Source: Dehalococcoidia bacterium (GTDB lineage: Bacteria > Chloroflexota > Dehalococcoidia > Bin125). From it: DNA of 64,000 bases. Positions 1,762-59,758 of the stretch are shown here, piece after piece. The stretch spans positions 96,001 through 160,000 of the forward strand of contig CAXXRD010000002.1 in NCBI GenBank assembly GCA_963663895.2, written 5' to 3'. Position 1 is the stretch's first letter. Each line of letters begins with the position of its first letter. The position numbers and the translations under genes are program-made. The notes under the pieces are model-generated. The model did not search any database, was not told where the DNA came from, and was given only the letters and a program-made list of their open reading frames with translations.

Positions 1762-2061
1762 ATGCCGGTGACCGCCATGGAGATCGACGCGCCGCCCTGC
1801 GCGGCGCATGCGTCCACGGGCCGCCGCTGGCAGTGTCCCGACTGCCGGCGGCTGTGGCGGCGGGCCTACCACCGCCAGTACCACAGCCAGCGCCTCAAAC
1901 CCGCCCGCCAGGCGCGCCGCGCCCAGCGGTTGGCGCAGCATCGCTGTACCTACTGCGGCCGGCCGCTGGACGAGGGAGCCCCCTACCAGCGCTGCGCCGC
2001 CTGCCGGGCCTATCTCACCGCCAAGCAGCGCGAATCCCGCGCCCGACGCCGAACGGAGTAA
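1762..2061 (+). CDS. Small basic Cys-rich (zinc-finger-like) protein
   Basis: CAAH, CPDC, CTYC and CAAC motifs, Arg-rich; immediately upstream of recombinase. Confidence 0.55.
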   Translation: MPVTAMEIDAPPCAAHASTGRRWQCPDCRRLWRRAYHRQYHSQRLKPARQARRAQRLAQHRCTYCGRPLDEGAPYQRCAACRAYLTAKQRESRARRRTE

Positions 2062-2099
2062 CCCCCGCTCGCACACTCGCGGCATCCCCTACGGCCCGC

Positions 2100-3155
2100 G
2101 TGGATAGGGATGCAACCGGCCACGGAGACGACAGCCCCGCGCTCCGTCTCGTCCGCGTCCCCGACCCGGTCGCCACTGCCACGGAAGGCAACGAGGCATC
2201 GGCCCCCGGCCTGCCGGATCCCCTGGCGGCCGGCTTCGCGGCGCCCGCCCCCGGCATCTCCGAGGAGGCGTTCGCCGCCCATGAGCGCGCGGCTGGCTGG
2301 AGCGCCAACACCTGCCGCGCCTACTGGCGTGCGTGGAGCACGTGGCAGGCCTGGGCCGCTGCCCACGGCGTGGGCGCGCTGCCCGCCCGCTGGCAAGATG
2401 TCCGCGCCTACCTGCTCGAGCGCGCCGCCGCCGGACGCACCCTGGCCACCCTCCGCGCCGACGCCGACGGCATCGCCGCCGTCCACACCACCACCCGCCA
2501 GCCCAACCCCTGCGCCAAGGGCGGAGCCGTGCGGATGGCGTTGACGCGGCTGGCCAAGGGGCGCGGCCGCGCCCCGCGCCAGGTGGCCGCCCTCGACGCC
2601 GCCGCGCTCGCCGCCATCCGCGCCACGGCCGCCCAGCCGCGCCGGGGCACCCGCCGCCGCGAATCGCCGGCCGCCGCCCGCCGGCGGGCCCTGCTCGACT
2701 GCGCCCTCGTGGGGCTGCTCAGCGATGGCGGGCTGCGGCGCTCCGAGGCCGCCGCCCTCCTCTGGGGGGATGTCGCCTGCGCCGACGATGGCTCGGGCCG
2801 CGTCACCGTGCGGCGCTCCAAGACGGACCCCACGGGCGAGGGGGCCGTGGTCGCGGTCACGCGCACCACCATGGAGGCCCTGGCAGCCCTGCGGGACGAG
2901 GCGCCCGACGACGCCCCCGTGATCGGCCTCTCGACGCGCCAGATCGCCCGCCGCATCAAGGCCGCCGCCCTCGCGGCCGGGCTGGGCGACGGCTTCAGCG
3001 GCCACTCCGGCCGGGTCGGCATGGCCCGCCGCATGGTCCGGGCCGGGGCGCCGACGGCCACCGTGCAGCGGCAGGGGCGCTGGAAATCGCCCGCCATGGT
3101 CGCCGCCTACACCCGCGCCGAATCCGCCGCCGAGGCGCTGCGCTTCCTTGAGTAG
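2100..3155 (+). CDS. Cre-like tyrosine recombinase (SAM-like N-terminus); start approximate
   Basis: SANTCRAYWRAW, LRRSE, RRSKTD, FSGHSGRVG, GRWKS..MVAAY catalytic motifs. Confidence 0.88.
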   Translation: MDRDATGHGDDSPALRLVRVPDPVATATEGNEASAPGLPDPLAAGFAAPAPGISEEAFAAHERAAGWSANTCRAYWRAWSTWQAWAAAHGVGALPARWQDVRAYLLERAAAGRTLATLRADADGIAAVHTTTRQPNPCAKGGAVRMALTRLAKGRGRAPRQVAALDAAALAAIRATAAQPRRGTRRRESPAAARRRALLDCALVGLLSDGGLRRSEAAALLWGDVACADDGSGRVTVRRSKTDPTGEGAVVAVTRTTMEALAALRDEAPDDAPVIGLSTRQIARRIKAAALAAGLGDGFSGHSGRVGMARRMVRAGAPTATVQRQGRWKSPAMVAAYTRAESAAEALRFLE

Positions 3156-3352
3156 GCCGGGTCGAACGGGCCGCGCACGGCGGTCAGTCGTCCGCCAGCA
3201 CTGCCGCCGCTCCACGCGGTTCAGCCTGCTCCGCTCCGCCTCCCGACTCGGGGCGGTCGTTGTCAGTCGACACCCTCGCTCGGCGCTGGACTCTCGGAGC
3301 GCTGTAGCTGAAAGGGCAGGGCCATCAACGTGCCCAGGCTCGACTCCCCAGG

Positions 3353-4546
3353 CTAATGATCCCCGGATCCAAGAGAGAAAGGCCTCTCAGAGACGCCGCC
3401 AGCGCTCCAACGGGATGCAGAAAGCACACAGAGCGAGAGCACCAACAAGATCAACTGTGTAGTTCGTTCCCCCCCCTCTTCAGAGCGGTTCTCGTCGGCA
3501 TCGCGAAGTTGCAGGAAGCTGGACGCGTCCCGGCGCAAGACGTGCCGGACGGCCTTGCGATCCATCCCGAACTCCCGTGCCAGGGCGTGCAGGGAGGCCC
3601 CTGCCTGAAAGGCGGACACGATCGCCCTGTCGCGCTTGGCGTTGCGTTTGCGGCGGGCCGCGCCACTGGCGCGTCCTCGGCGGCGGCCCCACTCCTGCTG
3701 CTCTGCAGGCGTGTAGAATCGTCCCTGCTCGATCCACTCTCGGCGGTATCGCTCCACCGACTTGGCCACCCCCCGGACTTCGCTGCCGGGCAGCGGGCCG
3801 CGCAGCGTGCCAGCGAACATGGTTTGGTTCCACGCCAAGGCGACCGGCTCGACGGGCTGCCCGAGATTACGCGCGGCTCCCGCCCAGCGCATCAACGCCT
3901 CAAAGAGGGCACAGTTGCGGCCGGGCTCGGTGCGCAGCTCGCGCGGTGCTCGCGGGCGGCGAAATCTGGCCGCGGCCGGATAGGCGGTGAGATCATCGAG
4001 GAGGTAGGGAAGCTCGCGGCCCCAGCGGACCTCAAAGAGATCAGGATCGACGCCGCACGGGTTGTGGGCCAGGACGCCGTTATAGCCAGGGTCCGCCTCC
4101 AAAACCGAAGCACCGTACTCCATAAAGCGGGCGAAGGCGCGCTGGGGCTTCAGCCGCGCCCTCGCGCCGTAGAGGACGGGGCGCAGGAGCGTGTAGAACA
4201 CCTGCGCGTGGCCGCTGGCTTCGCGCACCACGATCCAGTTGGCAGGCGGCAGCGTTCTTTTGAAATGAACCTCGACGATGTAGCGATCCAGCGCATCGCC
4301 GCCGTCAAGATCGAAGATCCCCACCGGCCAGCTGTTCGGCGTGCGGTATTCGATCGAGGGATACGTCCACGCTTCCACAACCGGCCGGCGAAACGAGTAC
4401 GCGAAGAGCCCCGTCGCGTCCTTGCCCCAGCTCACAAGCGGGTGCGCATGTGCCTCCTCGAGCCCATGGGCGCGGACGGGCTCAGGAACCGCCTCGATGG
4501 CAAACCGGGGACCGCGGAGCGGTGAAGCTGAGGAGGACGAAGACAT
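3353..4546 (-). CDS. ColE2-type replication initiator (Replicase + PriCT + C-terminal HTH)
   Basis: FDLD, SGHAQVFY, DPGYNGVLAHNP, GRNCALFE, EVRGVAKSVERY, and HTH GASLHALAREFGMDRKAVRHVL. Confidence 0.82.
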   Translation of the reverse strand: MSSSSSASPLRGPRFAIEAVPEPVRAHGLEEAHAHPLVSWGKDATGLFAYSFRRPVVEAWTYPSIEYRTPNSWPVGIFDLDGGDALDRYIVEVHFKRTLPPANWIVVREASGHAQVFYTLLRPVLYGARARLKPQRAFARFMEYGASVLEADPGYNGVLAHNPCGVDPDLFEVRWGRELPYLLDDLTAYPAAARFRRPRAPRELRTEPGRNCALFEALMRWAGAARNLGQPVEPVALAWNQTMFAGTLRGPLPGSEVRGVAKSVERYRREWIEQGRFYTPAEQQEWGRRRGRASGAARRKRNAKRDRAIVSAFQAGASLHALAREFGMDRKAVRHVLRRDASSFLQLRDADENRSEEGGERTTQLILLVLSLCVLSASRWSAGGVSERPFSLGSGDH

Positions 4547-4811
4547 GACCTTTCTCGCACAAAAGTGGTCTCTTGCCGAGGTCGGTCAATCCGGTACCCT
4601 CCCCATTCGTTTCGCTCCTCAAGACGCACACTTTCACCGAGGAGCGACGCGCGGGCAAGCCGATCTCCAATAGACCCACCGAGATATGTCGCTGGATGGG
4701 GCAGTTATCGATCAGCAGCGAGCAGAACACCCGGGAAGCGCCCGCACCACCCCCTAGGGTTGCAACCGGCCCTGCGGAATGCGGCGAGCCAGACATGAGG
4801 GCCGTACGTGC

Positions 4812-5000
4812 TTAGGCTGCCGGGCGGTCGCGAAGCCATGCCTCGACCTCCCTGCGCCGCCAGCCGACGGCCCGGGAGTTCGGACCCCCCAGCCGAAGGG
4901 CAGCCGGAAACTCACCAGCACGGACGCGCCGCCAGAGCGTGCTCCTGCTGAGACCGGTTAGGTCGCAGACCTCTTTTTGTCGCAGGATTTCTGGTTCCAT
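4812..5000 (-). CDS. alpA: AlpA-family excisionase/transcriptional regulator
   Basis: ILRQKEVCDLTGLSRSTLWRRVRAGEFP..LRLG..RAVGWRRREVEAWL. Confidence 0.9.
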   Translation of the reverse strand: MEPEILRQKEVCDLTGLSRSTLWRRVRAGEFPAALRLGGPNSRAVGWRRREVEAWLRDRPAA

Positions 5001-5132
5001 AGCGGCCTCCGGGGGTCATGGGAGGCCACCATATGCACAGCCATCTGTCGGTTCAAGCGTTATGGGCGGTGCACATCGAAATTGTCATGCCAGGGGCACG
5101 GACGCGGTGTCATGCCCGTTACGCGTATAGCG

Positions 5133-6296
5133 TCATGGGCCGTGCACATACGCTGCCCACTCTTGCATCAGCGCTCGTCGGCGCTCGAACAGATCCGATC
5201 GCCGATATGCGGCTTCGACGCGATCATTGTTGACGTGGGCGAGGGCCAGTTCGCACACTTCGCGGGGCGCGTCCGTGCACTCCGCCGCCCAATCGCGGAA
5301 GCTCGAGCGCATCCCATGCGGCACCGCTGGAATGCCGAGGTCGCGCAGCAGCTTGGAGAGCGTGTTGTCCGAGAGCACGCGGCCCTGGACGCTGGGGAAC
5401 ACGAGGCCCGATCCGTCCGCGAGTTCCTGGGCCGCATCGAGGACCGCGAGCGCGTGCGACGAGAGCGGGACCCGATGGGCGCGCCCCGCTTTCATGCGGG
5501 AGCCGGGAATGGTCCATGTTGCGCTTTCCCGGTCGATCTCTTCCCAGCGGGCGCCGCGAACCTCTCCCGACCGGCTCGCGGTCAGGGTCAGGAACTCCAG
5601 GGCGAGCTTGGTCGTCGGCGCGGCCGCAGACGCCCGCACCGCGGTGAGCGCGGCCCCGACTTCGGCGTGCGGGAGCGCCCGATGGTGCGCTTGCTGTCCC
5701 CCGTTCTTGGGGAGCGCGGCCCCGAGGGCCTCGCCGGCGGGGTTATCCTCGCGGTGGCCCTCGGCGATCGCCCAGCGCATCACCGCGCGGATGCGTTGCC
5801 GCACGCGCCGGGCCGTCTCCGGCTTCGCGCTCCAGATCGGCACGAGCACGGCCAGCACGTCCGCCGTGGTGATCTGATCGATCCGCTTGCGGCCCAACTG
5901 CGGCAGGACGTAGGTCCCGAGGCTGGCGCGCCACTGCTTCTCGTTCTTGCCGCCGTCCCGCCAGCCGGCCGCGTGAATCGCGATCACGGCGTCGACCGCG
6001 GCGGCGAAGGCGGGCACGCCGCCTCCGCGTGGATCCCGTCCCTGCGCGACCGCGCGGCGATTCTCCAAGGCCGCCTTGCGGGCCTCGGCCAGCGTGACCA
6101 CCGGATAGGCCCCTAGGCCGACGTTGAGCGGCCGGCCTGCGATCCGCAGCCGTTGGCTCCACGTCTTGGAGAGCCGGCCCGTGGATGTCGGCTTCACGAG
6201 CAGCGAGAGGCCGTAGCCGCCGCGCCCGTCGCCGTAGCGGCCTGGTACACTGATGGTCTTGACGAAGGCTGCGGAGAGGGTCTTAGGCCGTTGCAT
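5133..6296 (-). CDS. int: P4-family tyrosine integrase with N-terminal arm-binding domain
   Basis: PGRYGDGRGGYGLSL, GLGAYPVVTLAEAR, SRSGE, HGMRSSFRDW, LAHV, EAAYRRSDL. Confidence 0.93.
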   Translation of the reverse strand: MQRPKTLSAAFVKTISVPGRYGDGRGGYGLSLLVKPTSTGRLSKTWSQRLRIAGRPLNVGLGAYPVVTLAEARKAALENRRAVAQGRDPRGGGVPAFAAAVDAVIAIHAAGWRDGGKNEKQWRASLGTYVLPQLGRKRIDQITTADVLAVLVPIWSAKPETARRVRQRIRAVMRWAIAEGHREDNPAGEALGAALPKNGGQQAHHRALPHAEVGAALTAVRASAAAPTTKLALEFLTLTASRSGEVRGARWEEIDRESATWTIPGSRMKAGRAHRVPLSSHALAVLDAAQELADGSGLVFPSVQGRVLSDNTLSKLLRDLGIPAVPHGMRSSFRDWAAECTDAPREVCELALAHVNNDRVEAAYRRSDLFERRRALMQEWAAYVHGP

Positions 6297-7914: not shown

Positions 7915-8568
7915 ATGCCCCCCACCCAACCCACCGACCGCACCGTCGCCGTCCTCGTCGTCATCTTCACCGTCGCCGACGGCGCCCTGCAAGTCCTTCT
8001 CATCCAGCGCTCGGCGCCGCCCGATGAGGGCCGCTGGGCCATCCCCGGCGGCGCCCTCCGCCCCGACGAGGCGCTCGACGCCGCCGCCGTCCGCAAGCTC
8101 GCCGACGAAACCGGCGTCACCGACGTCTTCCTCGAACAGCTCTACACCTTCGACGGCCTCGACCCCGCCACTCCCACGACCACCGCCATCACCCACTTCG
8201 CCCTCGTCGACCATGCCCGCGTGCGCCTCCCCGAGCGTTCCGCCTGGCGGCCCGCCTGGTTCCCCATGGCCGCGCTCCCCGTCCTCGCTCTCCACAACGA
8301 CCGCGTCCTCGAAATCGCCCGCCGCCGCCTCATCAACAAGCTCGAATACACCAACGCCGCCTACAGCCTCCTGCCCGAGCACTTCCCCCTCTCCGACCTT
8401 CAAGCCGTCTACGAGAGCATCCTCGGCCGCCGGCTCGACAAGCGGAACTTCCGCCGCCGCATGCTCGCCTCCGGCCTCCTCGTGGCGACCGCCCGCACCG
8501 TGCAAGCCGGGCGGCACCGCCCCGCCCGCCTCTATCGCTTCGCCAGCCGTCTCCCGACCGAGCTCTGA
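7915..8568 (+). CDS. nrtR: NrtR Nudix-related transcriptional regulator
   Basis: Degenerate Nudix box (WAIPGG...RKLADETG), FLEQLYTF, C-terminal wHTH (LQAVYESILG..LDKRNFRR, GRHRPARLYRF); near nadABC. Confidence 0.88.
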   Translation: MPPTQPTDRTVAVLVVIFTVADGALQVLLIQRSAPPDEGRWAIPGGALRPDEALDAAAVRKLADETGVTDVFLEQLYTFDGLDPATPTTTAITHFALVDHARVRLPERSAWRPAWFPMAALPVLALHNDRVLEIARRRLINKLEYTNAAYSLLPEHFPLSDLQAVYESILGRRLDKRNFRRRMLASGLLVATARTVQAGRHRPARLYRFASRLPTEL

Positions 8569-8600
8569 ATCGAAAATATAAAGAGTTGCAGTACCGAGAA

Positions 8601-9012
8601 TTACTGGCGAGTTCGGATTCCTTCAAACACGTAGAATTCGGTACCTCCGACCTTCTCGTCGTCTATGAAAATGTTGATACTGTAGTTGCCTTTTTCGACG
8701 ATATCTATCTTAGCATCACAAGCCAAATCACCTACGAAAAAAGGAGAGTCGCCATAAGTGTCAAGTGTTAGCGATGACGGCTTATTGAAACACTGTTTCT
8801 CCACTGGGAGCAGTTGCACTCATTCGTATTTCTATACTCCTTCCAGCGTCAGTCGGATCTACCCGAAAGTGCATGAGAACCGTAAAGGGAAGTTGAGCGA
8901 TGGGGAACTCAGACGGCGGGATGATCAGAGAAGTAAAGAGTTTTTCGATATTCCACATCCTGTCTTCGGTCTGTTCTGCACTCTTGGCTGTGATTGCCCA
9001 GATAAGCTCCAT
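8601..9012 (-). pseudogene. AT-rich hypothetical protein (DUF6941-like beta-rich fold), split by one +1 frameshift near 8790
   Basis: ORFs 8782-9147 (from MELIWAI) and 8601-8819 join into ...SGETVFNKPSSL...GNYSINIFIDDEKVG if one T in GTGTTTCAAT is removed. Confidence 0.5.
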
Positions 9013-9155
9013 GACTTCCTTTCCTGATGAATCTGCACAGATCGAGCCCACTCTACTAGGTCCTGCGCATCCCCACTGACTTTCCCGCCTACACCGGCCA
9101 GAACCCGTTTTCATCAAAGCCGATGGTGAACCCATCAAAGACACCAAGCTGGGTT

Positions 9156-10490
9156 TCAGGACGCCATCCAGCCGTTCTTCGCGTTCAGGCGGCGGAGGCC
9201 GGAGAGCGTGTAGGTATTGCTCTTGGCGCGGTTGCAGGGGCCGCAGAGCAGGATGCGATTCGAGATGTGGTTGAGGCCAGCCGTCGGAGCGCGGCGTGTT
9301 GTGGTCGAGTTCGAGGTAGCGCGAGTCGTCGAAGACGCGGTCGCAGCCCTGACACTTCGGGCCATGTTGCCGGAGCAGAAAAATCGTACATTTCCGCGCG
9401 GGCTCATCTTCGGACCGCCCGGTTCTGCGTGCCGTTCAGTGACTTGGAGAAACGGCACAGCCTCTTGGCCGTCGTCGGTTCGTTGAGGCGGCGTGGATTC
9501 GTAGTGGATCACGGGGATATCAGTGAGAAGTTGGCGATTGTCCTCCATGCGCTGGCGAACAATGGCGTGTGCTTTATCCCAAAGGTCGATACCGACCCAC
9601 TGGCGCTCTAACCGCTCAGCGGCAATAGGTGTCGTCGCGCAACCGCAGAATGGATCGAGAACGATATCGCCTGGATTTGAGGATGCTCGAACGATCCGTT
9701 CGTACAGCGCAAGGGGCTTCTGGGTGGGGTAGCCTAGCCGCTCCTTGGCAGAAGGAGCGACAAATGGAATTTGCCAAACATCATTCTCCCGAACGCCTTT
9801 ATCATTTACTTCGCTATCACTTACGAGATACGGCTCCTCTCCCTTCTTGAAACGATGCAGTACACCTTGCTCCTTTCGCTCCTTAGAGCCCTTCGTATAT
9901 TTGGTATAAATGGGATTGAATGTGTAACTCTCAGATTTTGCGTAGAACAAGATTAAATCGTGCAGCCTCTGAAATCTCTTAGCCTTTCCTGTCCATCGCC
10001 GATAGTGCCACACAATCTCATTTACGAAATTCTTTCGACCAAATATGGCGTCCATCAACTCTTTGAGATAATGGCTAGCCGTTGGATCGCAATGTAGGTA
10101 GATGCTGCCATCGTCACGAAGAACACGGTGCATTTCCAGCAGCCGCACCCCCATGAAGCAAAGAAATGCGCCCATATCGTCGCCGTACGACTGGCGCGAG
10201 CCGTTGATCACGTTCATCACCTTGGGCCAGTCGTCGGTGATCTGATCGACCCACTCCCCCTCCACGTCATCTTCCCAGCTCCAGCGATCTTGAAACCTGG
10301 CACCAGCAGCGAGGCTGTCAGGCGTCGCGTGAAAGTCGCGTCCCTTGTTGAACGGTGGATCGGTCGCGATCAGGTGCACCGTGCCGCTGTTCATCCCTCG
10401 GAGAACGTCCAGGTTGTCCCCGTGGTACAGGGTACGGTTCTGGAAGTTGACCTCTGCCATTCCCTCGCTCCTGCTAGCCGGTCCTATCAC
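9156..10490 (-). CDS. Amino (N4/N6) DNA methyltransferase, beta class, fused to a C-terminal HNH domain
   Basis: TDPPFN (motif IV), YPTQKPLALYERIV, VLDPFCGCATT (motif I). C-terminus reads CQGC..LELDHNTPRSDGGLNHISNRILLCGPCNRAK after removing three +1 insertions. Confidence 0.85.
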   Translation of the reverse strand: MIGPASRSEGMAEVNFQNRTLYHGDNLDVLRGMNSGTVHLIATDPPFNKGRDFHATPDSLAAGARFQDRWSWEDDVEGEWVDQITDDWPKVMNVINGSRQSYGDDMGAFLCFMGVRLLEMHRVLRDDGSIYLHCDPTASHYLKELMDAIFGRKNFVNEIVWHYRRWTGKAKRFQRLHDLILFYAKSESYTFNPIYTKYTKGSKERKEQGVLHRFKKGEEPYLVSDSEVNDKGVRENDVWQIPFVAPSAKERLGYPTQKPLALYERIVRASSNPGDIVLDPFCGCATTPIAAERLERQWVGIDLWDKAHAIVRQRMEDNRQLLTDIPVIHYESTPPQRTDDGQEAVPFLQVTERHAEPGGPKMSPRGNVRFFCSGNMARSVRAATASSTTRATSNSTTTRRAPTAGLNHISNRILLCGPCNRAKSNTYTLSGLRRLNAKNGWMAS

Positions 10491-17132: not shown

Positions 17133-17633
17133 GTGGTCATCAACATCGACGCCATCAAAACCCTGCGCGAACGTACGCAGGCCGGCGTCATGGACTGCCG
17201 CCAAGCGCTGGAGGAGGCCGACGGCGACATGGACCGGGCCACCGCCATCCTCCGTGACAAAGGCCTCGCCACCGCGAGCAAGCGTGCCGACCGCGAGACC
17301 AACCACGGCCTCGTCGAGGCCTATGTCCATGGCGGCCGCATCGGCGCCTTGGTGGAGATCAACTGCGAAACGGACTTCGTCGCCCGGACGGATCTCTTCA
17401 AGACGCTCGCGCACGACATCGCCATGCAGATCGCCTCGATGCAGCCTGCGGTGATCCGTCCCGAAGACCTCGACCCGGATGCTGCTGGCTCGTCCGAGCA
17501 ACTCGCCCTCCTCGCACAGCCCTTCATTAAAGACCAGTCCAAATCCGTGCAGGACCGCATCAACGAAACCGTTGCCAGTACCGGCGAGAAGATCAAGGTG
17601 CGCCGCATGATGCGCTACAGTCTCGGCGAGTAG
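17133..17633 (+). CDS. tsf: Elongation factor Ts (short form)
   Basis: LRERTQAGVMDC, VEINCETDFVAR. Confidence 0.95.
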   Translation: MVINIDAIKTLRERTQAGVMDCRQALEEADGDMDRATAILRDKGLATASKRADRETNHGLVEAYVHGGRIGALVEINCETDFVARTDLFKTLAHDIAMQIASMQPAVIRPEDLDPDAAGSSEQLALLAQPFIKDQSKSVQDRINETVASTGEKIKVRRMMRYSLGE

Positions 17634-19026: not shown

Positions 19027-19800
19027 ATGGCCCAACCCGAACAGCCCTCCATACCCCGCCACGTCGCGCTCATCATGGACGGCAACGGGCGCTGGGCGGA
19101 GGCGCGCGGCCTCTCCCGTACCGCCGGGCACCGTGCCGGCACCGAGAACATCCGCACCGTCATTGAGACCTTCGGCGAGCGCGGCGTCGAATGTCTCACG
19201 CTCTACGCCTTTAGCACGGAAAACTGGGGGCGCCCGAAATGGGAAGTGGATTCCCTCCTGCGCATTCTCGCTCGCACCATCCGTAAAGAAGTCCGCCCCC
19301 TCCACGAGGCGGGCGTCCGGCTGCGTTGGATCGGCCGCATCAACGTGCTCCCCGCGCGGCTGCAGCAGCAGATCGAGAATGCCGTCGAGTTGACCCGCCA
19401 CAACGACAAGATGACCGTTTGCGCCGCCTTCAACTACGGCGCGCGCGCGGAGATCGTCGAGGCCGTGCAACGCATCGCCAGCGAGGGCGTTCCGCCCGAC
19501 GCCATCGACGAGGCCCTCGTCGCCAGCCGCCTCTACACGGCCGGCCTTCCCGACCCCGACCTCATCGTCCGCACCGGCGGCGAGTGGCGCCTCTCCAACT
19601 TTCTCCTCTGGCAAGCCGCCTATGCGGAGTACCACAGCACCCCGACCTACTGGCCCGACTTCTCCAAGGCAGACATCGACGAGGCCCTCGCCGTCTACCA
19701 GCGGCGCGTGCGCAAGTTCGGCGCGCTGGTCGACGACGGCCGTGGCAACGGCCCCACCCCCGCGCGCGCCGCCGCGCAGCCCGGTGGGAACGGCGCCTGA
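19027..19800 (+). CDS. uppS: Polyprenyl (undecaprenyl) diphosphate synthase
   Basis: HVALIMDGNGRWA, YAFSTENW, RTGGEWRLSNFLLWQ. Confidence 0.95.
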   Translation: MAQPEQPSIPRHVALIMDGNGRWAEARGLSRTAGHRAGTENIRTVIETFGERGVECLTLYAFSTENWGRPKWEVDSLLRILARTIRKEVRPLHEAGVRLRWIGRINVLPARLQQQIENAVELTRHNDKMTVCAAFNYGARAEIVEAVQRIASEGVPPDAIDEALVASRLYTAGLPDPDLIVRTGGEWRLSNFLLWQAAYAEYHSTPTYWPDFSKADIDEALAVYQRRVRKFGALVDDGRGNGPTPARAAAQPGGNGA

Positions 19801-20685
19801 TTGATGTCGCTCGCCTCCCAGATCTGGAACCGGGGCTGGCGGCTTTTCGTCTCCTCTCCCCTGTTCCTGCGCGTGGTGACCGCCGCGCCGGCCGTGCCGA
19901 TCGTCGTTGTCGCGATCCTGGAGGGTGGCGGGCTCTGGGCCGCTATCGTCGCGCTCACGCTCGTCGTCGCGATGATCGAGTTCGCCTCTGCGGTGGGAAT
20001 CTCCCGGCGCGACCCGCTGCTCGCCATCTTGGTCGCCGCCGCCGCCGCTATCCCGGCCGTCGCCCTTCTCAGTGACATTCCCCGCACCTGGCCCTTGACC
20101 GCAGCACTGCTCGCCCTCGCCGCGTTTCCGATCGCCGCCGGCACCGGCCTGCGCCTCGGCGGCCTGATCAAGCCGACCGATATCCGCGCCCTCGCCCCCC
20201 GCCTGGCCTATGCCGCCTTCGCGCTGATCTATTTCGCCTGGCTGGGCAGCTTCCTCGTCGCCTTGCGAGAACTGCCCCAAGGCGAGGAGTGGACCCTGCT
20301 CGCCCTCTTCGCCGTCATGGCCGCCGACACGGGCGCCTTCGTCGTGGGCAAGCTCGGCGGACGCCGCCCGCTCGTGCCACAGCTCAGCCCCAATAAGACC
20401 GTCGAAGGCGCGCTCGGTGGCTTCGCCGCCGGCTTCGCCACCGTCCTGCTGATCAACCTCCTACCAGATCTCAACGTCCCGCTAGAGAAGATGGTCATCC
20501 TGGCGCTCGTCCTGCCCCTCATGGCCGGGATCGGGGATCTGGCCGAATCCACGCTGAAGCGATCACTGAACGTGAAAGACATCGGCGGCATGCTCCCCGG
20601 CCACGGTGGCGTCCCCGACCGCCTCGACAGCCTGCTCTTCGGCGTGCCGACGGTATACTTTTTTGTACTATGGGCCGTGGTCTGA
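19801..20685 (+). CDS. cdsA: Phosphatidate cytidylyltransferase
   Basis: DTGAF, LSPNKTVEG, GDLAESTLKR..KD..PGHGG..DRLDS. Confidence 0.93.
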   Translation: MMSLASQIWNRGWRLFVSSPLFLRVVTAAPAVPIVVVAILEGGGLWAAIVALTLVVAMIEFASAVGISRRDPLLAILVAAAAAIPAVALLSDIPRTWPLTAALLALAAFPIAAGTGLRLGGLIKPTDIRALAPRLAYAAFALIYFAWLGSFLVALRELPQGEEWTLLALFAVMAADTGAFVVGKLGGRRPLVPQLSPNKTVEGALGGFAAGFATVLLINLLPDLNVPLEKMVILALVLPLMAGIGDLAESTLKRSLNVKDIGGMLPGHGGVPDRLDSLLFGVPTVYFFVLWAVV

Positions 20686-21824
20686 CTCGCGTCCTCGTCC
20701 TCGGCAGCACCGGCAGCATCGGCACCCAAACTCTCGATGTCATCCGTTCCCTCCCGACGCACTTCCAAGTGGTGGGCCTGGCGGCCGGCAGCAATCTCGA
20801 TCTGCTCGCCCAGCAGGCGCGGGAGTTCCATCCTCAACTCCTCTGGTGTGAGCGCGCCGCGCCCGCAGCACTGGCCGACTTGGCTTCCCAAATAGGAGCA
20901 GTGGTGACCCCGCTGGAGGAGATGGTTTCCGCCGTCGATCTCGACGTGGTGGCCGTCGGCACCGCCGGGCGCGCCGGTCTTGAGCCGACCTTGACCGCTC
21001 TCCAGCAAGGCCGCGCCGTCGCCCTCGCGAATAAAGAGGTGATCGTCATGGCCGGCCACCTCGTGCGGCGCGCGGCCGATGAAGGCGGTGGGCAGCTGCG
21101 GCCCGTCGACTCGGAGCACTCGGCGATCTGGCAGTGCCTCTGGGGCGAAGAGGGCAACGACATTCGACGCATCATCCTCACCGCCTCCGGCGGCGCCCTG
21201 CGCAACTTGCCCGCCAGTGCCCTTGCCCAGGTCACGCCCGAGCAGGCGCTCGCCCATCCCACTTGGAAGATGGGCCCCAAGATCACCGTCGACTCCGCCA
21301 CCCTCCTCAACAAAGGGCTGGAAACGATCGAGGCGCGCTGGCTCTTCGACGTGCCCTATGACCGCGTGGAGGTAGTGCAGCACGCCGAATCGATCGTGCA
21401 CTCCCTCGTCGAGTTCGGCGATGGCTCGGTCAAGGCCCAGCTCGGCAATCCAGACATGCGCCTGCCCATTCAGTGCGCACTCAGCTACCCCGGGCGCCTG
21501 CAGCCCACCGTCGCCCCCTTGGACCTCCCCGCGATCGGCGCGCTCACCTTCGAAACGCCCGACCTGGAGCGCTACCCTTGCCTGCGCCTCGCCATGGAGG
21601 CCGGCCGCCAAGGCGGTACCTATCCCACCGTCCTCGCCGCCGCCGACGAGGTCGCCGTCGGCGCCTTCCTCAACGGAGCGATCCGCTTCACGCAGATCCC
21701 AACCGCGATCGCGTCTGCCCTCGACGCGCACACCTCCACCCCAGATCCCACGCTCGGCGCAATCGACGAAGCCGACCGTTGGGCGCGCGACTTCGCCACC
21801 CACTGGCTGGCGGCGCGAGTCTAG
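20670..21824 (+). CDS. dxr: 1-deoxy-D-xylulose 5-phosphate reductoisomerase
   Basis: LGSTGSIGTQTL, ALANKE, PVDSEHSAI, HPTWKMGPKITVDSA. Confidence 0.96.
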   Translation: MGRGLTRVLVLGSTGSIGTQTLDVIRSLPTHFQVVGLAAGSNLDLLAQQAREFHPQLLWCERAAPAALADLASQIGAVVTPLEEMVSAVDLDVVAVGTAGRAGLEPTLTALQQGRAVALANKEVIVMAGHLVRRAADEGGGQLRPVDSEHSAIWQCLWGEEGNDIRRIILTASGGALRNLPASALAQVTPEQALAHPTWKMGPKITVDSATLLNKGLETIEARWLFDVPYDRVEVVQHAESIVHSLVEFGDGSVKAQLGNPDMRLPIQCALSYPGRLQPTVAPLDLPAIGALTFETPDLERYPCLRLAMEAGRQGGTYPTVLAAADEVAVGAFLNGAIRFTQIPTAIASALDAHTSTPDPTLGAIDEADRWARDFATHWLAARV

Positions 21825-21826: not shown

Positions 21827-23521
21827 GTGCTCGATACCATCCTCCCCTTCATCGGCATCCTGCTCGGACTCGTGATCCTGCACGAACTCGGCCACTTCGT
21901 CGTGGCCAAGCTCGCGGGTGTGCGCGTCGAAGAGTTCGGTATCGGCATGCCCCCGCGGATCGCCGGCATCCGCTTTGGCGAAACCCTCTACTCGATCAAT
22001 TGGCTGCCCCTGGGCGGCTTCGTGCGCCTCACCGGGGAGGAAAGCGCGCGCGTCTTCGTCGCCACCGTCAACGCCCAGAGTGCCGCCGCCCGCGCCGGTC
22101 TGCACGCGGGCGACGTCATCCTGAAAGTCGACGGCACGCCCGTCCACAGCGACGAGCAACTCGCCAAGCAACTCCGCCTGGCCGCCGCCGACAGCGGCCC
22201 GATCCCGATCGAGATCGAGCGCGAGCAGCAGGGGGCGCGGGGGGCCGAACTGGAACGGCGCACCCTCCTGCTAGAGCCGCAGACGGTCCCCGCCACAGCG
22301 ACCGCTGCGGCAGCGCGCCCCGCCGGGCCCGCTGCCGGGATCGGCAGCATCGCCGGCATCCAAACCAGCCCGGACCCTCGCTCCCTCGCCACCAAGCCGC
22401 GCCCCGTGCGCATCGCCGTGATGGCGGCCGGCGCCGTCACCAACTTCATCGTCCCGATCGTGCTCTTCGCCGTCGCTGCGCTCATTCCCCAAGCCGCGCC
22501 CGGGGGCCCCGCGGTCATCACCTCCGTCGTCGAAGGCGCCCCCGCCGAACGCGCCGGACTGCGGGCCGGCGATCGCGTAGTCAGCATCAACGGCGAGCCG
22601 ATCCGACACGCCGGCGACCTTTCTCTCGCCATTCAACTGAACGTCGGCAACCAAGTGGAGTTCGTTGTCGAGCGGGAGGTCTACGCGGAGGGCACTGCCC
22701 AACGCCAGAGCTTCCAGCTACAGCTCTTCACGACCGTCGTGCAAGCACGGCTCGCGCCGCAGGACCTCGATCACGTCGTGCAGCCGGACGAAACCATCCA
22801 CGACATCGCTGCCCTGCTGGGTGTGAGCGCCACCCAAGTCCTGCGCGGCGCCGGCCTCGGCGCCGGCTTTCCCATCGACGAGGGCACCGAGCTCGTGCTC
22901 GCGGACGGCACCCGCTACGTCGTCCAGCAAGACGATACCGCGGAGTCGATCGCCGACGACCTGTTCGTCCGCAACCAAGTGATCTACGACGCCGCCGGCA
23001 TCGACCCCATACGGCTGGAGCCCGGCATGACGGTCAGCGTGGAGCAAGGCCCCACCGGCATCACCATCGCCAATCTCCGCCCCACCACCGTCACGGAGCG
23101 CTCGGACTTCTTCGCCGCCGTCGAGACCGGATGGACGCGCACCGTCGACACGTTCATGCTCGTACGTAATCGCATTCGCTCCTGGATCGCCGGCGGCGAC
23201 CCCATCACGGTCAGCGGCCCCATCGGCTTGGCCCGCGCCACGGACGAGATCGTCGAACGCGCCGGCTGGCTGCGCCTGATCGAACTCGCTGCGCTCCTCA
23301 GCCTCAACCTGGCCGTGATCAACATCCTGCCCCTGCCCATGCTTGATGGCGGCCGCATCATGTTCGTCCTGATCGAGATCGCCCGGCGCGGCCGCCGGAT
23401 CTCCCCCGAGAAAGAGGGCCTAGTGCACCTCACCGGCTTCGCGATCATCATCGCCTTCATGGTGATCGTCGGCTACTTCGACGTCATCCGCGCTATCGCC
23501 GGCGAAAGCGCTCTGCGCTAA
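21827..23521 (+). CDS. rseP: RseP/RasP site-2 (M50) intramembrane protease with two PDZ domains and two LysM-like repeats
   Basis: HELGH, LPLGGFVR, AVINILPLPMLDGG; position after dxr; PDZ-like SAAARAGLHAGDVILKVDG and APAERAGLRAGDRVVSING; LysM-like HVVQPDETIHDIA and YVVQQDDTAESIA. Confidence 0.9.
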   Translation: MLDTILPFIGILLGLVILHELGHFVVAKLAGVRVEEFGIGMPPRIAGIRFGETLYSINWLPLGGFVRLTGEESARVFVATVNAQSAAARAGLHAGDVILKVDGTPVHSDEQLAKQLRLAAADSGPIPIEIEREQQGARGAELERRTLLLEPQTVPATATAAAARPAGPAAGIGSIAGIQTSPDPRSLATKPRPVRIAVMAAGAVTNFIVPIVLFAVAALIPQAAPGGPAVITSVVEGAPAERAGLRAGDRVVSINGEPIRHAGDLSLAIQLNVGNQVEFVVEREVYAEGTAQRQSFQLQLFTTVVQARLAPQDLDHVVQPDETIHDIAALLGVSATQVLRGAGLGAGFPIDEGTELVLADGTRYVVQQDDTAESIADDLFVRNQVIYDAAGIDPIRLEPGMTVSVEQGPTGITIANLRPTTVTERSDFFAAVETGWTRTVDTFMLVRNRIRSWIAGGDPITVSGPIGLARATDEIVERAGWLRLIELAALLSLNLAVINILPLPMLDGGRIMFVLIEIARRGRRISPEKEGLVHLTGFAIIIAFMVIVGYFDVIRAIAGESALR

Positions 23522-26979: not shown

Positions 26980-27912
26980 ATGGCCGGTGGACCGGGGCGA
27001 TCGGAGCGGGAAGGGCTGACGCTGGCGGAGCTGTTCAAGCGGTTCCCCGACGATGCGAAGGCAGAGGCATGGTTCGTAGCAGGGCGCTGGTCAGATGGCC
27101 CGATCTGCCCGCACTGTGAGTCCGACACGATCAAGATCGGCCCGAAGCATCCGACGATGCCCTACCGCTGCCGTGCCTGCAAGAAGTACTTCAGCGTCAA
27201 GATGGGGACCGTGATGGAGGGGTCGAACCTCGGCTACCAGACGTGGGCCATTGCGATTTACCGCATGACGACCAGTCTGCGCGGCGTCTCCAGCATGCAG
27301 CTTCACCGCGATCTGGGGATCTCCCAGAAGGCGGCTTGGCACTTGGCCCACCGCATCCGGCAGGCGTTCGGCACGCCAGCGGAACCGATGGCCGGCCCGG
27401 TCGAAGTGGATGAGACCTACATCGGCGGACTGGAAGGCAACAAGCACGAATCCAAGCGCCAGCACCGGGGCCATGATGGCAAAGTCGCGGTCATTGGCGC
27501 GAAGGACCGGGCGACCGGGAAGGTGCGAGCGGAAGTGCTCGGCAAGGCGGAAGCGCCCCGCATGCGGGAGTTCGTGCGGCGGCAGGCGGCTCCGAAAGCG
27601 TCGGTCTACTCGGACGGGCATGGAGCCTACACGTCGCTGGAAGGAGAGTTCCGCCACCGCGCGGTCCAGCATGCGGCGGGAACCTACGTCATCTTCGATA
27701 CGCACACGAACGGGATCGAGGGGTTCTGGTCGCAACTCAAGCGCGGCTACCACGGAACCTACACGCATTGGAGCGCGAAGCACACGCACCGCTACCTGGA
27801 TGAGTTCACAGGCCGCTACAACGCCCGGAGCGCAGACACCGTGGACCAGATGGCGGGCATCGCCAAGGGGATGCAGGGGAAGCGGCTCCGATACCGAGAA
27901 CTCGTGGCTTAA
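26980..27912 (+). CDS. IS1595-family DDE transposase
   Basis: CPHC..CRAC zinc ribbon, HTH (QLHRDLGISQKAAWHLAHRIR), VEVDETY, YSDG..AY, HTNGIEGFWSQLKR. Confidence 0.95.
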   Translation: MAGGPGRSEREGLTLAELFKRFPDDAKAEAWFVAGRWSDGPICPHCESDTIKIGPKHPTMPYRCRACKKYFSVKMGTVMEGSNLGYQTWAIAIYRMTTSLRGVSSMQLHRDLGISQKAAWHLAHRIRQAFGTPAEPMAGPVEVDETYIGGLEGNKHESKRQHRGHDGKVAVIGAKDRATGKVRAEVLGKAEAPRMREFVRRQAAPKASVYSDGHGAYTSLEGEFRHRAVQHAAGTYVIFDTHTNGIEGFWSQLKRGYHGTYTHWSAKHTHRYLDEFTGRYNARSADTVDQMAGIAKGMQGKRLRYRELVA

Positions 27913-28724
27913 TCTGTCGGCAGACCAGACGGTAGTTGCAGGATGCGATCGAGGTGGGGCAGCGCGTCGGGAAAGCGATCCTGGAAGTACGCGTGCGCCC
28001 GCGTTGGCAGCCAGACCTCGTGGAAGTACCGGCGAAAATCCGCCAAGTGCTCAATCGGGTAGAGTCGCGCCTGCACGGTGGGGCGTCGCCCGTCAATGAA
28101 CTCGTGGTCATAGGTGGGGAACTGGTTGGGGTCGATGCCTCTTCGCCGGAGGAAATCGGAGAACATGCGGCCCGTCGAAATGTCCGGCATCATCCTGTCT
28201 GGCGGAATCACCCCCACGTCTTCCAAAGGCGCGAGCAGGTGTAGGTAAATCTCATTCAGCATCGAGAAATGGGTGTGGGGAATCTTCGCCCGATTCTTCA
28301 AGAATCGCTGAATGTGGACGGGCATGTAAGCCCGGAAGTTGCCCGACATCCAGTCGTAGACCCACCGGTTTACCTTGACTGCGAACTCGGGCGAGAGCCA
28401 TTGGCCGAGGTGCGTAGCAACTTGGGGGTGAACCCAAGTACCCTGCAACTGTGGCTCCCCTCCTTTGATGATCTGCACGAGTTCCGATATGGGAATTCCC
28501 ATATCGGCTGAAAGTTCATCAAGGTACGCCTTCGTTTGGCTGTTTCGGTGGTAGTCCGCAAATAACTTCCCTGCTTCCTGGCAGAGCCTCGTAGCGTTGA
28601 TGTAACCGTCGCGCGGTCGCTGAGGAACGAGGCCGCCATTGGCCGGGTGTTCGATGATGAGGGGGAGCTGCTGAAACTCCATGGGTTTTGTGAGAGCGCG
28701 TTGTTTCTTGTTCATCTCTGGCAT
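27909..28724 (-). CDS. KilA-N domain protein with BstA-like C-terminal domain
   Basis: DGYINATRLC..GK, GTWVHPQVATHLGQWLSPEFAVKV (KilA-N); C-terminal IPHTHFS..E..PDISTG..YDHEF..LYP..FRRYF. Confidence 0.85.
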   Translation of the reverse strand: MPEMNKKQRALTKPMEFQQLPLIIEHPANGGLVPQRPRDGYINATRLCQEAGKLFADYHRNSQTKAYLDELSADMGIPISELVQIIKGGEPQLQGTWVHPQVATHLGQWLSPEFAVKVNRWVYDWMSGNFRAYMPVHIQRFLKNRAKIPHTHFSMLNEIYLHLLAPLEDVGVIPPDRMMPDISTGRMFSDFLRRRGIDPNQFPTYDHEFIDGRRPTVQARLYPIEHLADFRRYFHEVWLPTRAHAYFQDRFPDALPHLDRILQLPSGLPTD

Positions 28725-28882
28725 CCCTGCCCGTATGCCACGCTCTCTATACCGCAGATGCCCCGGCTGCTGTGGTCCGAACGGGGAAAAGTCACGATTT
28801 CTCGTAGACGGATTGTGTATTGAGGGGAAAATGTGCAGGTTTGGAGACGCGAGCAGAACGGGGGCAGGCTATCCGAACCCCG

Positions 28883-28978
28883 TTACTTCTTCGGCTTCCG
28901 TACGCCGCCGCCCTTCACGATCGCCTGCATCACCTGCTGGGGCGTCGCCTTGATGCGGAGGTCTTTGATCTTCGGCAT
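28883..28978 (-). CDS. 31-aa peptide MPKIKDLRIKATPQQVMQAIVKGGGVRKPKK inside the IS
   Basis: ATG..TAA ORF below the track cutoff with GC3-rich codons; co-oriented with the cargo genes. Confidence 0.45.
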   Translation of the reverse strand: MPKIKDLRIKATPQQVMQAIVKGGGVRKPKK

Positions 28979-29010
28979 GGCAACTCTCAGGTTACTACCA
29001 GAGGCGCGCG

Positions 29011-29409
29011 TCAGAAACAGTCAGCACCACGGAAGCGGACCGACCCAGTGAAAGGATCGAGCCGCACAGAGCAGGTGATGACCTGGTCATCACCATCGAA
29101 GAGGAATGATTCTTCCGCGCAGCGAGATGCTGGACGATCGCAGCGCACCGCCACGACGAACTCAAAGATATCGTCGTCTGTCTCGCGGTAGCGCCAGGTC
29201 TCTTGCTGATCAGAGCAATCGGTCTCAGGGGACGCCAGAGTAACGTCCTCCTGGACGTTTTCGAGGACAAGCCCGACAGCAGCACGGCAGCCATCAGCGG
29301 CGGTGAAGTCATCGAAGAGGACAGAGTCACCACCACCGCAGGCCAAGACTGTGACGCTACCTAGACAGGCGATCACCCCGAGCAGCGCTACTTTAATTCG
29401 CTGAGACAT
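29011..29409 (-). CDS. Putative Cys-rich lipoprotein (IS cargo)
   Basis: Basic N-terminus, hydrophobic stretch, VLAC-GGG lipobox, six further Cys. Confidence 0.55.
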   Translation of the reverse strand: MSQRIKVALLGVIACLGSVTVLACGGGDSVLFDDFTAADGCRAAVGLVLENVQEDVTLASPETDCSDQQETWRYRETDDDIFEFVVAVRCDRPASRCAEESFLFDGDDQVITCSVRLDPFTGSVRFRGADCF

Positions 29410-29554
29410 AGGTATCCCCTTACCGCGCGAGCGGGCGGCACACTACGGGATCACCTGTAGGCGGTCAATGCTACTATTGTCTATAACTACCTAAAACAGA
29501 CGGCCGGCGCGACCTCTGCTACACTGGTCGCGAAACCGAAAGCGTGTTTCGCTG

Positions 29555-29580
29555 AAGGTGGGCTGGAGCCCACCTTTTTT
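29555..29580 (+). terminator. Leader hairpin/attenuator of the nusA-infB operon (rimP-leader type)
   Basis: AAGGTGGGC-TGGA-GCCCACCTT followed by a T-tract, ~65 nt before nusA. Confidence 0.75.
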
Positions 29581-29645
29581 GATACCACGTTCGAATGGAG
29601 CGCCAGGGCGGCGCGGCGAGCGCAAGCGTCGAGAGGACTTGACCG

Positions 29646-31169
29646 ATGGCACAACTGAATACGGATGCGACCAAGACGGGCACGGCTGCCGCAGCAGCGC
29701 CACCCGCGCCCGCAACACTTCCGCCCGACTTCCTCACCGCGATCACCACCCTGACGGCAGAAAAAAACCTGCCGGAGCCCGTCGTCTTCGAAGCGGTCGA
29801 GTCCGCACTCGCCGCCGCCTATAAGCGCGACTACAACATCCGCGGCGATGTCAAGGTCCAGATCGACCGAGTATCGGGCGCGCTCAAGGTCTGGTCCCAG
29901 ATCGAAGTCGTCGAGATCGAAGAGGACATCGCCGACCCCGATCTACAGATCGAGCACGAGGCCGCCCTCAATATCCAGCCGGATATCCAAATCGGGCAGC
30001 TGCTCATCCAAGACCACACGGTGGGCGTCGCCGGACGTATCGCCGCGCAGACCGCGAAGCAAGTGGTCTTGCAGCGCCTCCGCGAAGCGGAGCGCGAGGT
30101 CGTCTTCGACGAGTACTCCGGCCAGGAAGGCGACATCCTCTCGGGCGTTGTCCAACGGCTCGAGTCCCGCCAAGTGATCGTCGATCTCGGCCGGACCGAG
30201 GCCGTGCTCCCGCCCTCCGAGCAAATCCGCATGGAACACTACCGGCCCGGCCAGCGCATCCGCGTCTACCTCCTAGAGGTGCTCATGGGCACCAAAGGCC
30301 CTCAGGTCGTCGTCTCCCGCACCCATAAGAACCTGATCAAACGCCTCTTCGAGCTCGAGGTCCCCGAGATCTTCCGCGGCCAAGTGGAGGTCAAGGGGAT
30401 CGCGCGGGAGCCCGGGCACCGCACTAAGGTCGCCGTGCACAGCCACCGAGACGGGCTCGACCCTGTTGGCGCCTGCGTCGGCATGCGCGGCATACGCATC
30501 CAAAACGTCGTCAACGAACTGCAAGGCGAGCGCATCGACGTCATCCAGTGGGACCCGGACCCGCGCCGTTACGTCGCGCATGCGCTCAGCCCGGCCCAAG
30601 TACTCGCCGTGCGGTTACTGCCAGACAGCAACACCGCCGAGGTGGCCGTGCCGAACAAGCAGCTCTCGCTCGCCATCGGCAAGGAAGGACAAAACGCGCG
30701 GCTGGCCGCCCGCCTCACCGGTCTGCGTATCGATATCAAGCCGCAATCACTCGCCGAGAAGCTGGCCAAAGAAGGGCTGGGCCCTCTCGCACCTCAGCCC
30801 GAGCTACCGAAGCCGGTGGTGCCCACGCCGACTACGGTCAAAGCCCAGCCCGCCGCCGTCACGCCTGAGCCCGCCACCGCCGCAACGGCAGACCCCGCCC
30901 CCGCGCGGCGCGAGCTGCCGCTCCAGGAACCCGAAGAGCCCGTCATCGAAGAGAAAGAAGAGGAAGAAGAGGAGATCGAGCCCGCCGCCGCCGAACTCGA
31001 AGTCGCGGCCCCGCCACCCAGCGAGCCCGGCAAGATCCGCTTCGCGGAGGAGGTACTGGCGCGCCCCACCCTGGAAACCAAGCAGAAGAAGCGGCGTAAG
31101 ATCCGCTACGTGGAGACCGACGAGGGTCTCGACGAAGATCCCTACGCGGACTACGCCGCAGAGGAGTAG
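29646..31169 (+). CDS. nusA: Transcription termination/antitermination factor NusA
   Basis: [12 protein letters not shown]1 and KH domains, [30 protein letters not shown]; acidic tail. Confidence 0.96.
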
Positions 31170-59757: not shown

Positions 59758-59758
59758 G

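Follow-up and report, generated by a model that had tools for sequence, protein, structure and literature searches.

Among the bacterial site-2 proteases (S2Ps), those of group I have been described, in the account given by one review, as carrying a variable number of extracytoplasmic PDZ domains and no other kind of accessory module (PMC10202637). RseP of Escherichia coli (7w6x), of Aquifex aeolicus (aq_1964; 9j82/9j83) and of Kangiella koreensis (7w6y) belong to this group and display a periplasmic PDZ tandem, and RasP of the monoderm Bacillus subtilis (integrative model 9a6w) has a single PDZ in its outer loop. The models currently employed to explain the gating of these enzymes rest on the PDZ tandem. 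The present work deals with the rseP gene found in a 64,000-nucleotide stretch of DNA from a Dehalococcoidia bacterium (contig CAXXRD010000002.1, positions 96,001 to 160,000 of the forward strand), hereafter the window, whose own numbering is used throughout for nucleotide (nt) positions. Its product is a conserved, lineage-specific variant of this well-known protease family, and it departs from the PDZ tandem in two ways: a pair of LysM domains is located where the second PDZ would stand, and a PDZ appears to have been moved to a cytoplasmic loop. The variant constitutes a natural test of the gate, of the share that mere bulk and specific recognition have in it, and also of the possibility of a direct link between an intramembrane protease and the cell wall. 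Its practical weight is limited, the organisms being uncultured and the function standing at the level of prediction.

At the literature level, no paper was found on LysM in a site-2 protease, RseP, M50 or intramembrane protease in a search of titles and abstract starts, subscription journals and InterPro architectures lying outside it; the papers that pair these protease terms with LysM concern, from the same titles and abstract starts, LysM-Cre mice, unrelated LysM proteins and general reviews. The term 'LysM' is absent from the main text of a survey of PDZ architectures in microbes published in 2019 (PMC6411480) and from that of a 2023 review of bacterial S2Ps (PMC10202637), and a full-text search gave no match for 'site-2 protease' together with 'cytoplasmic PDZ'.

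A site-2 protease with two LysM domains

The identity of the protease was established by several concordant lines of evidence. Its GTG start codon is located 3 bases past the dxr stop, in agreement with the N-termini of relatives in a 121-row family alignment. In a Pfam scan of the whole protein of 564 amino acids (aa), the Peptidase_M50 model PF02163 reaches 175.4 bits against a cut-off of 27.2, and the NCBIfam model TIGR00054 ('RIP metalloprotease RseP') 205.1 bits against 147.55; with 115.8 bits the protein stays far below the 477 bits demanded by NF008046, the narrower NCBIfam equivalog of E. coli type. The same Pfam scan also matches PDZ in two stretches. The zinc-binding motif HELGH occupies aa 19-23 (nt 21881-21895) and the motif NILPLPMLDGG aa 499-509 (nt 23321-23353), so both lie where group I enzymes carry them, with HExxH in the first transmembrane (TM) helix and NxxPxxxLDG in the third core TM helix. 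Residues H19, E20 and H23 together with N499, P502, P504, L506, D507, G508 and G509 are invariant in the 121 aligned sequences. The presence of rseP at the dxr locus with both motifs intact, as claimed in an earlier note on this DNA, is thereby borne out by the NCBIfam matches and the motif positions.

Hydropathy reveals four membrane segments (aa 1-31, 194-228, 480-508 and 529-560), with which the helices of an AlphaFold2 (AF2) model agree. The protein thus displays the four-TM core with at least one PDZ between TM2 and TM3 that characterizes group I, the sidedness of the loops being assigned by homology. The AF2 model of the whole protein, computed from the 121-sequence alignment, has a mean predicted local distance difference test (pLDDT) score of 79.7 and a predicted template modelling score of 0.68, and it matches in fold RasP (9a6w), Aquifex RseP (9j83/9j82) and E. 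coli RseP (7w6x) with E-values from 1.2e-17, obtained for RasP as the best match, to 1.9e-14. In the comparison with the E. coli, Aquifex and Kangiella enzymes, sequence matches range from 8.1e-38 to 2.5e-23 and fold matches from 3.6e-15 to 1.9e-12, and what is shared comprises the four TM helices, HExxH, the reentrant beta-loop, NxxPxxxLDG and the helix that follows the ectodomain. A chance or mis-framed open reading frame (ORF) was ruled out, as the frame is conserved across the 121 homologues, and Pfam, profiles and fold all point the same way.

The window protein is a single orthologous RseP/RasP-type site-2 protease of a bacterium of the Dehalococcoidia class of Chloroflexota with a canonical catalytic core, whose sequence places HExxH in TM1, LDG in TM3 and a predicted reentrant beta-loop between TM1 and TM2. 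Because this machinery is intact and invariant, and by analogy with the characterized group I enzymes, the protein presumably carries out intramembrane cleavage of type II membrane-spanning substrates such as anti-sigma factors and leftover signal peptides.

The earlier note had also reported two tandem LysM-like repeats at about nt 22770-23045, and these proved to be genuine LysM domains by sequence and predicted fold. In the whole protein PF01476 matches two stretches with 36.3 bits (E 5.4e-09), above its cut-off of 20.9; when each repeat is scanned alone, LysM2 remains above this value and LysM1 falls just below it (Table 1). The two repeats align to each other with 11 identities over 29 positions (E 7e-04). 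Each of them adopts the beta-alpha-alpha-beta arrangement of some 43 residues that defines the domain: the AF2 model places strand 314-317, helices 324-331 and 335-341 and strand 355-357 in LysM1, and strand 363-365, helices 372-379 and 383-390 and strand 402-405 in LysM2, with mean pLDDT values of 89-95 over 10-residue blocks. A second model of the tandem alone, obtained from a six-sequence alignment (the window and five loci), has a pLDDT of 88.9 and again shows this fold twice, with the same secondary structure as in the whole-protein model.

When the tandem model was employed in a fold search of the Protein Data Bank, the first 14 matches listed were all LysM-containing structures. The best of them is the LysM tandem of Thermus thermophilus NlpC/P60 (4uz2; E 1.9e-04, probability 0.98), followed by SleL, CEBiP, CHIP13, MltD and Ecp6. 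Over the whole tandem the TM-score reaches only about 0.31, since the two domains are oriented differently to each other, and a single-domain match has a target TM-score of 0.58. Sequence profiles lead to the same proteins, with matches to T. thermophilus P60 (4uz2, 1.2e-08), YaaH (4s3k, 2.2e-07), 4xcm, LytE, Ecp6, MltD and AtlA. The PF01476 score above cut-off and the LysM fold predicted twice agree with what the earlier note had expected of the repeats.

The same note was wrong in assuming two extracytoplasmic PDZ domains followed by the LysM pair. PDZ1 and PDZ2 flank TM2, so PDZ2 is the only PDZ joined to the LysM pair, and the window protein lacks the E. coli-type arrangement in which one PDZ directly follows another in the TM2-TM3 loop. 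PDZ2 matches in fold the second PDZ of E. coli RseP (3id2, target TM-score 0.69) and the C-terminal PDZ (PDZ-C) of Kangiella (7w70, 0.65). The LysM pair comes after TM2 and before TM3, between PDZ2 and a conserved QG-TGI strand that opens the C-terminal core. In the alignment this strand falls on Aquifex residue 280, just behind PDZ-C, so that the pair occupies the linear position of the second PDZ of E. coli and Aquifex RseP. The core continues with a helix (aa 428-454), TM3 (aa 480-508), an Arg-rich loop and TM4 (aa 527-557).

The other departure concerns PDZ1. In the alignment to Aquifex RseP (9j82), query residues 8-73 correspond to target residues 6-71 and query residues 182-272 to target residues 74-168, which leaves about 108 extra residues, a PDZ with its linker, between the reentrant loop and TM2. 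Scanned alone, this domain reaches 42.5 bits with PDZ_6, 41.0 with PDZ_2 and 37.5 with PDZ in Pfam. It is the least conserved region of the protein, with a mean identity to the query of 31% in the family alignment. On both sides of the insertion the sequence is well conserved: E35, E36, F37, G38, G40, P42, P43, R44, G63, G64, T69, G70 and E71 are invariant in the reentrant loop (n=121), which AF2 models with low confidence (pLDDT <50 for aa 38-73), and so are D183 and R195 in the DPRS...KPRPVR stretch N-terminal to TM2.

Several features place PDZ1 on the cytoplasmic side and PDZ2 with the two LysM domains outside. Solved RseP has its reentrant loop dipping into the membrane from the cytoplasm (PMC4597795). 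PDZ1 is predicted to be cytoplasmic because of its insertion site, the lack of any hydropathy membrane segment from aa 31 to 194, this entry side of the reentrant loop and the charge distribution, with Arg/Lys-rich sequences just N-terminal to TM2 (KPRPVR) and in the TM3-TM4 loop (ARRGRRISPEKEG) that fit the positive-inside rule. A PDZ predicted on the cytoplasmic side, which the earlier note missed, is a more unusual feature than the LysM pair. Neither element is present in RasP, and the E. coli, Aquifex and Kangiella enzymes lack both the single PDZ followed by two LysM domains in the TM2-TM3 loop and the extra PDZ with its linker. An accessory domain on the cytoplasmic side is part of the definition of SpoIVFB and the group III S2Ps (PMC10202637); the likeness is one of analogy only, as these form a different S2P subgroup devoid of PDZ domains and carry CBS instead.

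Table 1. Features of rseP and its upstream neighbours in the window (all on the plus strand)
Feature	Positions (nt)	Strand	Remarks
rseP coding sequence, group I site-2 protease (Peptidase_M50)	21827..23521	+	564 aa, GTG start, stop 23519-23521 included
TM1 with zinc-binding HELGH (aa 1-31)	21827..21919	+	hydropathy and motif; AF2 helix 5-29
Predicted membrane-reentrant beta-loop region (aa 32-73), ending in GGFVRLTGEE	21920..22045	+	aligns to A. aeolicus RseP 9j82 residues 6-71
PDZ1 and Ala/Pro-rich linker (aa 74-181), insertion between reentrant loop and TM2	22046..22369	+	Pfam; Aquifex alignment
TM2 (AF2 helix aa 192-219; hydropathy aa 194-228)	22400..22510	+	aligned to Aquifex TM2, residues 74 onward
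PDZ2 (aa 227-306), sole PDZ in the predicted extracytoplasmic TM2-TM3 loop	22505..22744	+	PDZ_6 61.5 bits alone
LysM repeat 1 (aa 316-358)	22772..22900	+	PF01476 18.4 bits alone; AF2 fold
LysM repeat 2 (aa 364-406)	22916..23044	+	PF01476 27.2 bits alone; AF2 fold
C-terminal core (aa 407-564)	23045..23518	+	aligns to Aquifex RseP residues 280-431 (50.9 bits), also to Kangiella and E. coli RseP
Upstream context	19027..21824	+	uppS 19027-19800, cdsA-like ORF 19801-20685, dxr 20670-21824

Distribution and conservation among the Dehalococcoidia

The layout is not confined to the window. A word-indexed protein search listed 120 relatives of 562-598 aa with 48-95% identity, one of them annotated by its source as a Chloroflexi RseP. 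In the precomputed Pfam annotations of these relatives, counted by hand, PF01476 is present in 55, a plant LysM model (PF23473) takes its place in another 4, and the remaining 61 show neither of the two. These missing annotations are threshold effects rather than losses, because both repeats and the conserved signature are kept in 121 of the 121 alignment rows. The repeats have nearly constant lengths there (42-43 and 40-43 aa). The earlier note knew of no characterized RseP or RasP with this architecture, and its accessory domains do differ from those of the characterized enzymes; it is no singular oddity, being kept in 120/120 listed relatives. A unique fusion or an assembly chimera was ruled out on the same grounds, some of these relatives lying on contigs >2 Mb, and the layout is present besides in four species-representative genomes. 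From its distribution, the LysM-bearing layout is the standard orthologous form of RseP across a lineage of Dehalococcoidia.

The conservation of the LysM pair points to purifying selection comparable to that on PDZ2, the mean identity to the query being 47-49% for the LysM repeats and 51% for PDZ2. In LysM1 the pattern L-x-H-x-V-Q-x-G-[ED]-[ST]-[VI] ... L-G-V ... G-x-x-L-x-L-P is conserved (n=121), with H316 kept in 117, G321 in 114, L331 in 120 and G332 in 116 of the 121 rows. In LysM2 Y364 and D370 are invariant, and T371 (119/121), R382 (118/121) and G400 (120/121) nearly so. The best-conserved positions form the loop between strand beta1 and helix alpha1, namely G321, [ED]322 and [ST]323 in the first repeat and D370 and T371 in the second.

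A wider view was obtained from a genome scan, in which the best 80 of 517 matches correspond to 78 loci in species-representative genomes. Within this set the form of about 570 aa was found in four metagenome-assembled genomes of Dehalococcoidia/Chloroflexota (L001, L002, L004 and L022; 49-52% identity), and a shorter form of 470 aa (L003) has a PDZ and the LysM pair (PF01476 34.5 bits) and lacks the cytoplasmic-position PDZ. A hidden Markov model (HMM) of the LysM tandem, built from the family alignment and therefore not independent of family members, matches the RseP of these 5 among the 78 loci. Among the 149 nearest 50%-identity representatives besides P0029, it matches five (P0122-P0126), P0123 and P0124 being apparently fragmentary; PF01476 reaches 39.1 bits in P0125 (470 aa) and 18.8 bits in P0126 (455 aa). 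A PDZ in the cytoplasmic position is found only in P0122, P0124, P0203 and P0219 of these representatives, the last three being fragments judging by their length (403, 144 and 164 aa). Outside the RseP family no LysM tandem of this kind was detected by a word-based search with aa 308-410, whose 10 proteins all belong to the same family. In the ESM Atlas, weak evidence in that it covers only clusters of at least 50 members, just M50/PDZ clusters were retrieved, and LysM was absent from the families shown.

Other Chloroflexota RseP proteins encoded at the dxr locus have one PDZ (L005, L009) or three (L050, L063, L069). The nearest LysM-less relatives in the Dehalococcoidia (L005 and L009) are single-PDZ proteins of about 355 aa and in this respect resemble RasP. 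At the same locus of further Dehalococcoidia, the RseP proteins of L015-L021 show a DUF5666 match within the TM1-TM2 region (for example aa 52-96 of the protein encoded by L016:3001-4584), and those of L020 and P0163 also have a NusA_N-like match in the ectodomain. Judging by these sequence matches, the TM1-TM2 loop and the ectodomain seem to be hot spots of domain insertion in Chloroflexota RseP. At another locus, an ORF upstream of a LysM-less RseP (L067:1565-2599) gives a weak match of 16.5 bits to the second half of the LysM-tandem profile and is probably an unrelated LysM protein.

The history of the layout was approached with a quick, unrooted FastTree of 76 rows and 353 shared columns, for which an occupancy of 60% or more was required; the LysM columns, occupied in 18 rows out of 76, do not reach this value and hence do not contribute to the tree. 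The rows are the query, 11 of the 120 listed relatives, P0125, P0126, 26 loci out of the 78 and, from P0127 to P0199, every second representative with a length of 335 aa or more. The 570-aa form appears as one clade (support 100), nested in a group of 24 rows (support 99) together with the 470-aa LysM form, P0126/P0129 and single-PDZ proteins. Mapping the LysM label on the tree needs two changes, of which well-supported branches force only one. This offers no more than a suggestion for the order of events, in which LysM would have been gained first and the cytoplasmic PDZ later.

Candidate roles of the LysM pair

Tandems of LysM domains are well known from peptidoglycan hydrolases. Those of T. 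thermophilus NlpC/P60 (4uz2, 4uz3, 4xcm), SleL/YaaH (4s3k), LytE and MltD consist of two modules joined by a short linker, as does the window pair, although in the hydrolases LysM targets a soluble or secreted wall enzyme and in the window RseP it forms part of a loop in a polytopic intramembrane protease. In the complex of P60 from T. thermophilus (P60_tth) with chitohexaose, the G-D-T loop establishes contacts via Gly24, Thr26 and Thr74 (PMC4356369). The conserved positions of the beta1-alpha1 loop in the window family map onto this loop in the tandem profile alignment, and the G/D-D-T loop that contacts N-acetylglucosamine (GlcNAc) is conserved in the window pair.

The reading preferred here, to which roughly an even chance is granted, is that the LysM pair tethers the extracytoplasmic cap to the peptidoglycan glycan strands of the cell itself. 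The pair would bind GlcNAc-containing strands, and this binding would tether and orient the cap above the active-site entrance of the S2P in a monoderm cell. The cap formed by PDZ and LysM would still work as a size filter that excludes uncleaved substrates. This proposal fits with the biology of the group to the extent that Chloroflexota are described as monoderm and peptidoglycan as ancestral in Dehalococcoidia and retained in their basal orders (PMC10284905).

Several observations weigh against such a tether. Many orders of the Dehalococcoidia have lost their peptidoglycan, according to the same source (PMC10284905). The loop between helix alpha2 and strand beta2, which in P60_tth provides main-chain contacts to GlcNAc (PMC4356369), is proline-rich in LysM2 of most relatives, P397, P398 and P399 being the majority residues (n=121), and in comparison with the hydrolases this loop before the last strand is divergent. 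LysM1 alone remains under the Pfam cut-off (18.4 vs 20.9), three of the five related loci (L001, L002, L004) miss it as well, and 61 of the 120 relatives have no precomputed LysM annotation. LysM domains usually carry an Asn at the end of helix 2, and this position is Gly or Ala in the window repeats. The domains may thus be degenerate LysM modules that bind no glycan. Finally, the domains were assigned to their membrane sides by homology, hydropathy and the distribution of charges.

Part of these observations would be accounted for if the pair bound no sugar and acted as a compact, rigid filler replacing the second PDZ of a size-exclusion cap, or packed against PDZ2 and the following helix, with regulation as in single- or double-PDZ RseP. 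We consider this unlikely but deserving of weight. It is favored by the linear position of the pair at that of PDZ-C and its similar length (roughly 90 aa), by the weak Pfam scores with their consequences for annotation, by the proline-rich alpha2-beta2 loop of LysM2 and by the free exchange of modules in Chloroflexota RseP (one PDZ, three PDZ or DUF5666), which suggests that the loop tolerates any compact domain. A mere filler fits less well with the fact that the canonical sugar-contact loop is the best conserved part of the pair (D370 invariant, T371 in 119/121 rows), an argument that is not decisive, since these residues have structural roles too. It also leaves unexplained why a tandem of a carbohydrate-binding fold was fixed and has been kept across 48-95% identity. 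In another alternative, which takes up the gating proposed in the earlier note, muropeptides, chitin oligomers or a change in the state of the wall might act on the cap through the LysM pair, opening or closing it, so that a glycan signal would switch intramembrane cleavage directly, possibly without a site-1 protease. The presence of genuine LysM domains in the very loop that serves as the gate of solved RseP speaks for a switch of this type, as does the role of LysM ectodomains as glycan receptors in plant receptor kinases, CEBiP and CHIP13 being among the fold matches. The plant receptors (CEBiP, CHIP13, NFP and LYS11) are weaker fold matches (E 0.038 to 0.74) in which a LysM ectodomain is coupled to a transmembrane signalling protein; unlike the window RseP they are eukaryotic proteins with three LysM domains, disulfides and a kinase output, and the likeness is in concept only. 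Near the gene, which dxr and ispG flank, neither a cognate substrate nor a site-1 protease was recognized, and host glycans, which the earlier note had contemplated, are unlikely ligands because the lineage consists of uncultured environmental Chloroflexota. Ligand gating is judged quite improbable.

PDZ domains typically bind C-terminal peptides. An attractive idea is that the PDZ predicted in the cytoplasm may capture the new C-terminus of the cleaved product. Joined to a sensing role of the LysM pair, it would yield a two-sided, self-contained signalling protease in which the S2P itself is the wall sensor of peptidoglycan-bearing Dehalococcoidia. Intact glycan strands would hold the PDZ-LysM cap in one state, wall damage or competing muropeptides would release it, and the released cap would admit substrates without a dedicated site-1 protease; the cytoplasmic PDZ, near the active site, would then capture the new C-terminus and pass the fragment on to degradation or release. 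This scheme is held to be very improbable as a whole. The lowest probability of all is assigned to the binding of a glycosylated S-layer or envelope protein, or of the extracytoplasmic stub of the substrate, by a LysM pair that would recruit substrates, a role already suggested for the PDZ of RseP. LysM1 of T. thermophilus P60 also packs against a protein domain (PMC4356369), and Dehalococcoidia of the Tepidiforma type have an S-layer with unusual complexes (PMC10284905), both of which lend some plausibility to docking. Against it, neither a candidate partner nor a co-conserved neighbouring gene emerged at the compared loci. Recognition of proteins is, in addition, exceptional among characterized LysM domains.

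Gene neighbourhood and other features of the window

The gene order around the protease, with NCBIfam names, is rpsB, pyrH, frr, uppS, the cdsA-like ORF, dxr, rseP, ispG (minus strand) and proS. UppS matches TIGR00055 with 266.9 bits and Dxr matches TIGR00243 with 437.8 bits; the cdsA label was read off the ORF translation, which has no NCBIfam match at 1e-40. The neighbourhood of dxr, cdsA and uppS is likewise common to RseP of the E. coli, Aquifex and Kangiella type. The order uppS-cdsA-dxr-rseP is found with the ~570-aa LysM form (L001, L002, L004, L022), and with the 470-aa form (L003) the order is cdsA-dxr-rseP, the available DNA beginning inside cdsA. Among the LysM-less loci, L005 and L016 show the full order, and only dxr-rseP was detected in L009. 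This gene order is thus common to forms with and without LysM.

In the rest of the window, the ORF at 17133-17633, between rpsB and pyrH and hence in the position expected for tsf, encodes only 166 aa and has no NCBIfam match at E 1e-40. The ORF at 13762-15231 matches the C-terminal part of L-aspartate oxidase with aa 2-117 and NadC with aa 208-477, which suggests either a nadB-nadC fusion or a misplaced ORF start with nadB beginning further upstream on the same strand. A mobile-element-like cluster extends over positions 1584-6296: a phage-integrase-domain ORF (1584-3155) is followed, both on the minus strand, by a Replicase-family ORF (3353-4546) and another ORF with an integrase domain (5133-6296); the G+C content falls to 0.58 at 8001-10000. 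The interval from proS to nusA contains an IS1595-family transposase (26980-27912) along with, on the minus strand, an ORF with a KilA-N domain (27909-28724), and the G+C content is again lower, 0.589, at 28001-30000. A hopanoid gene set occupies positions 54598-61102, with a polyprenyl synthase, a squalene-hopene cyclase (831.7 bits), hpnC, hpnD and hpnE.

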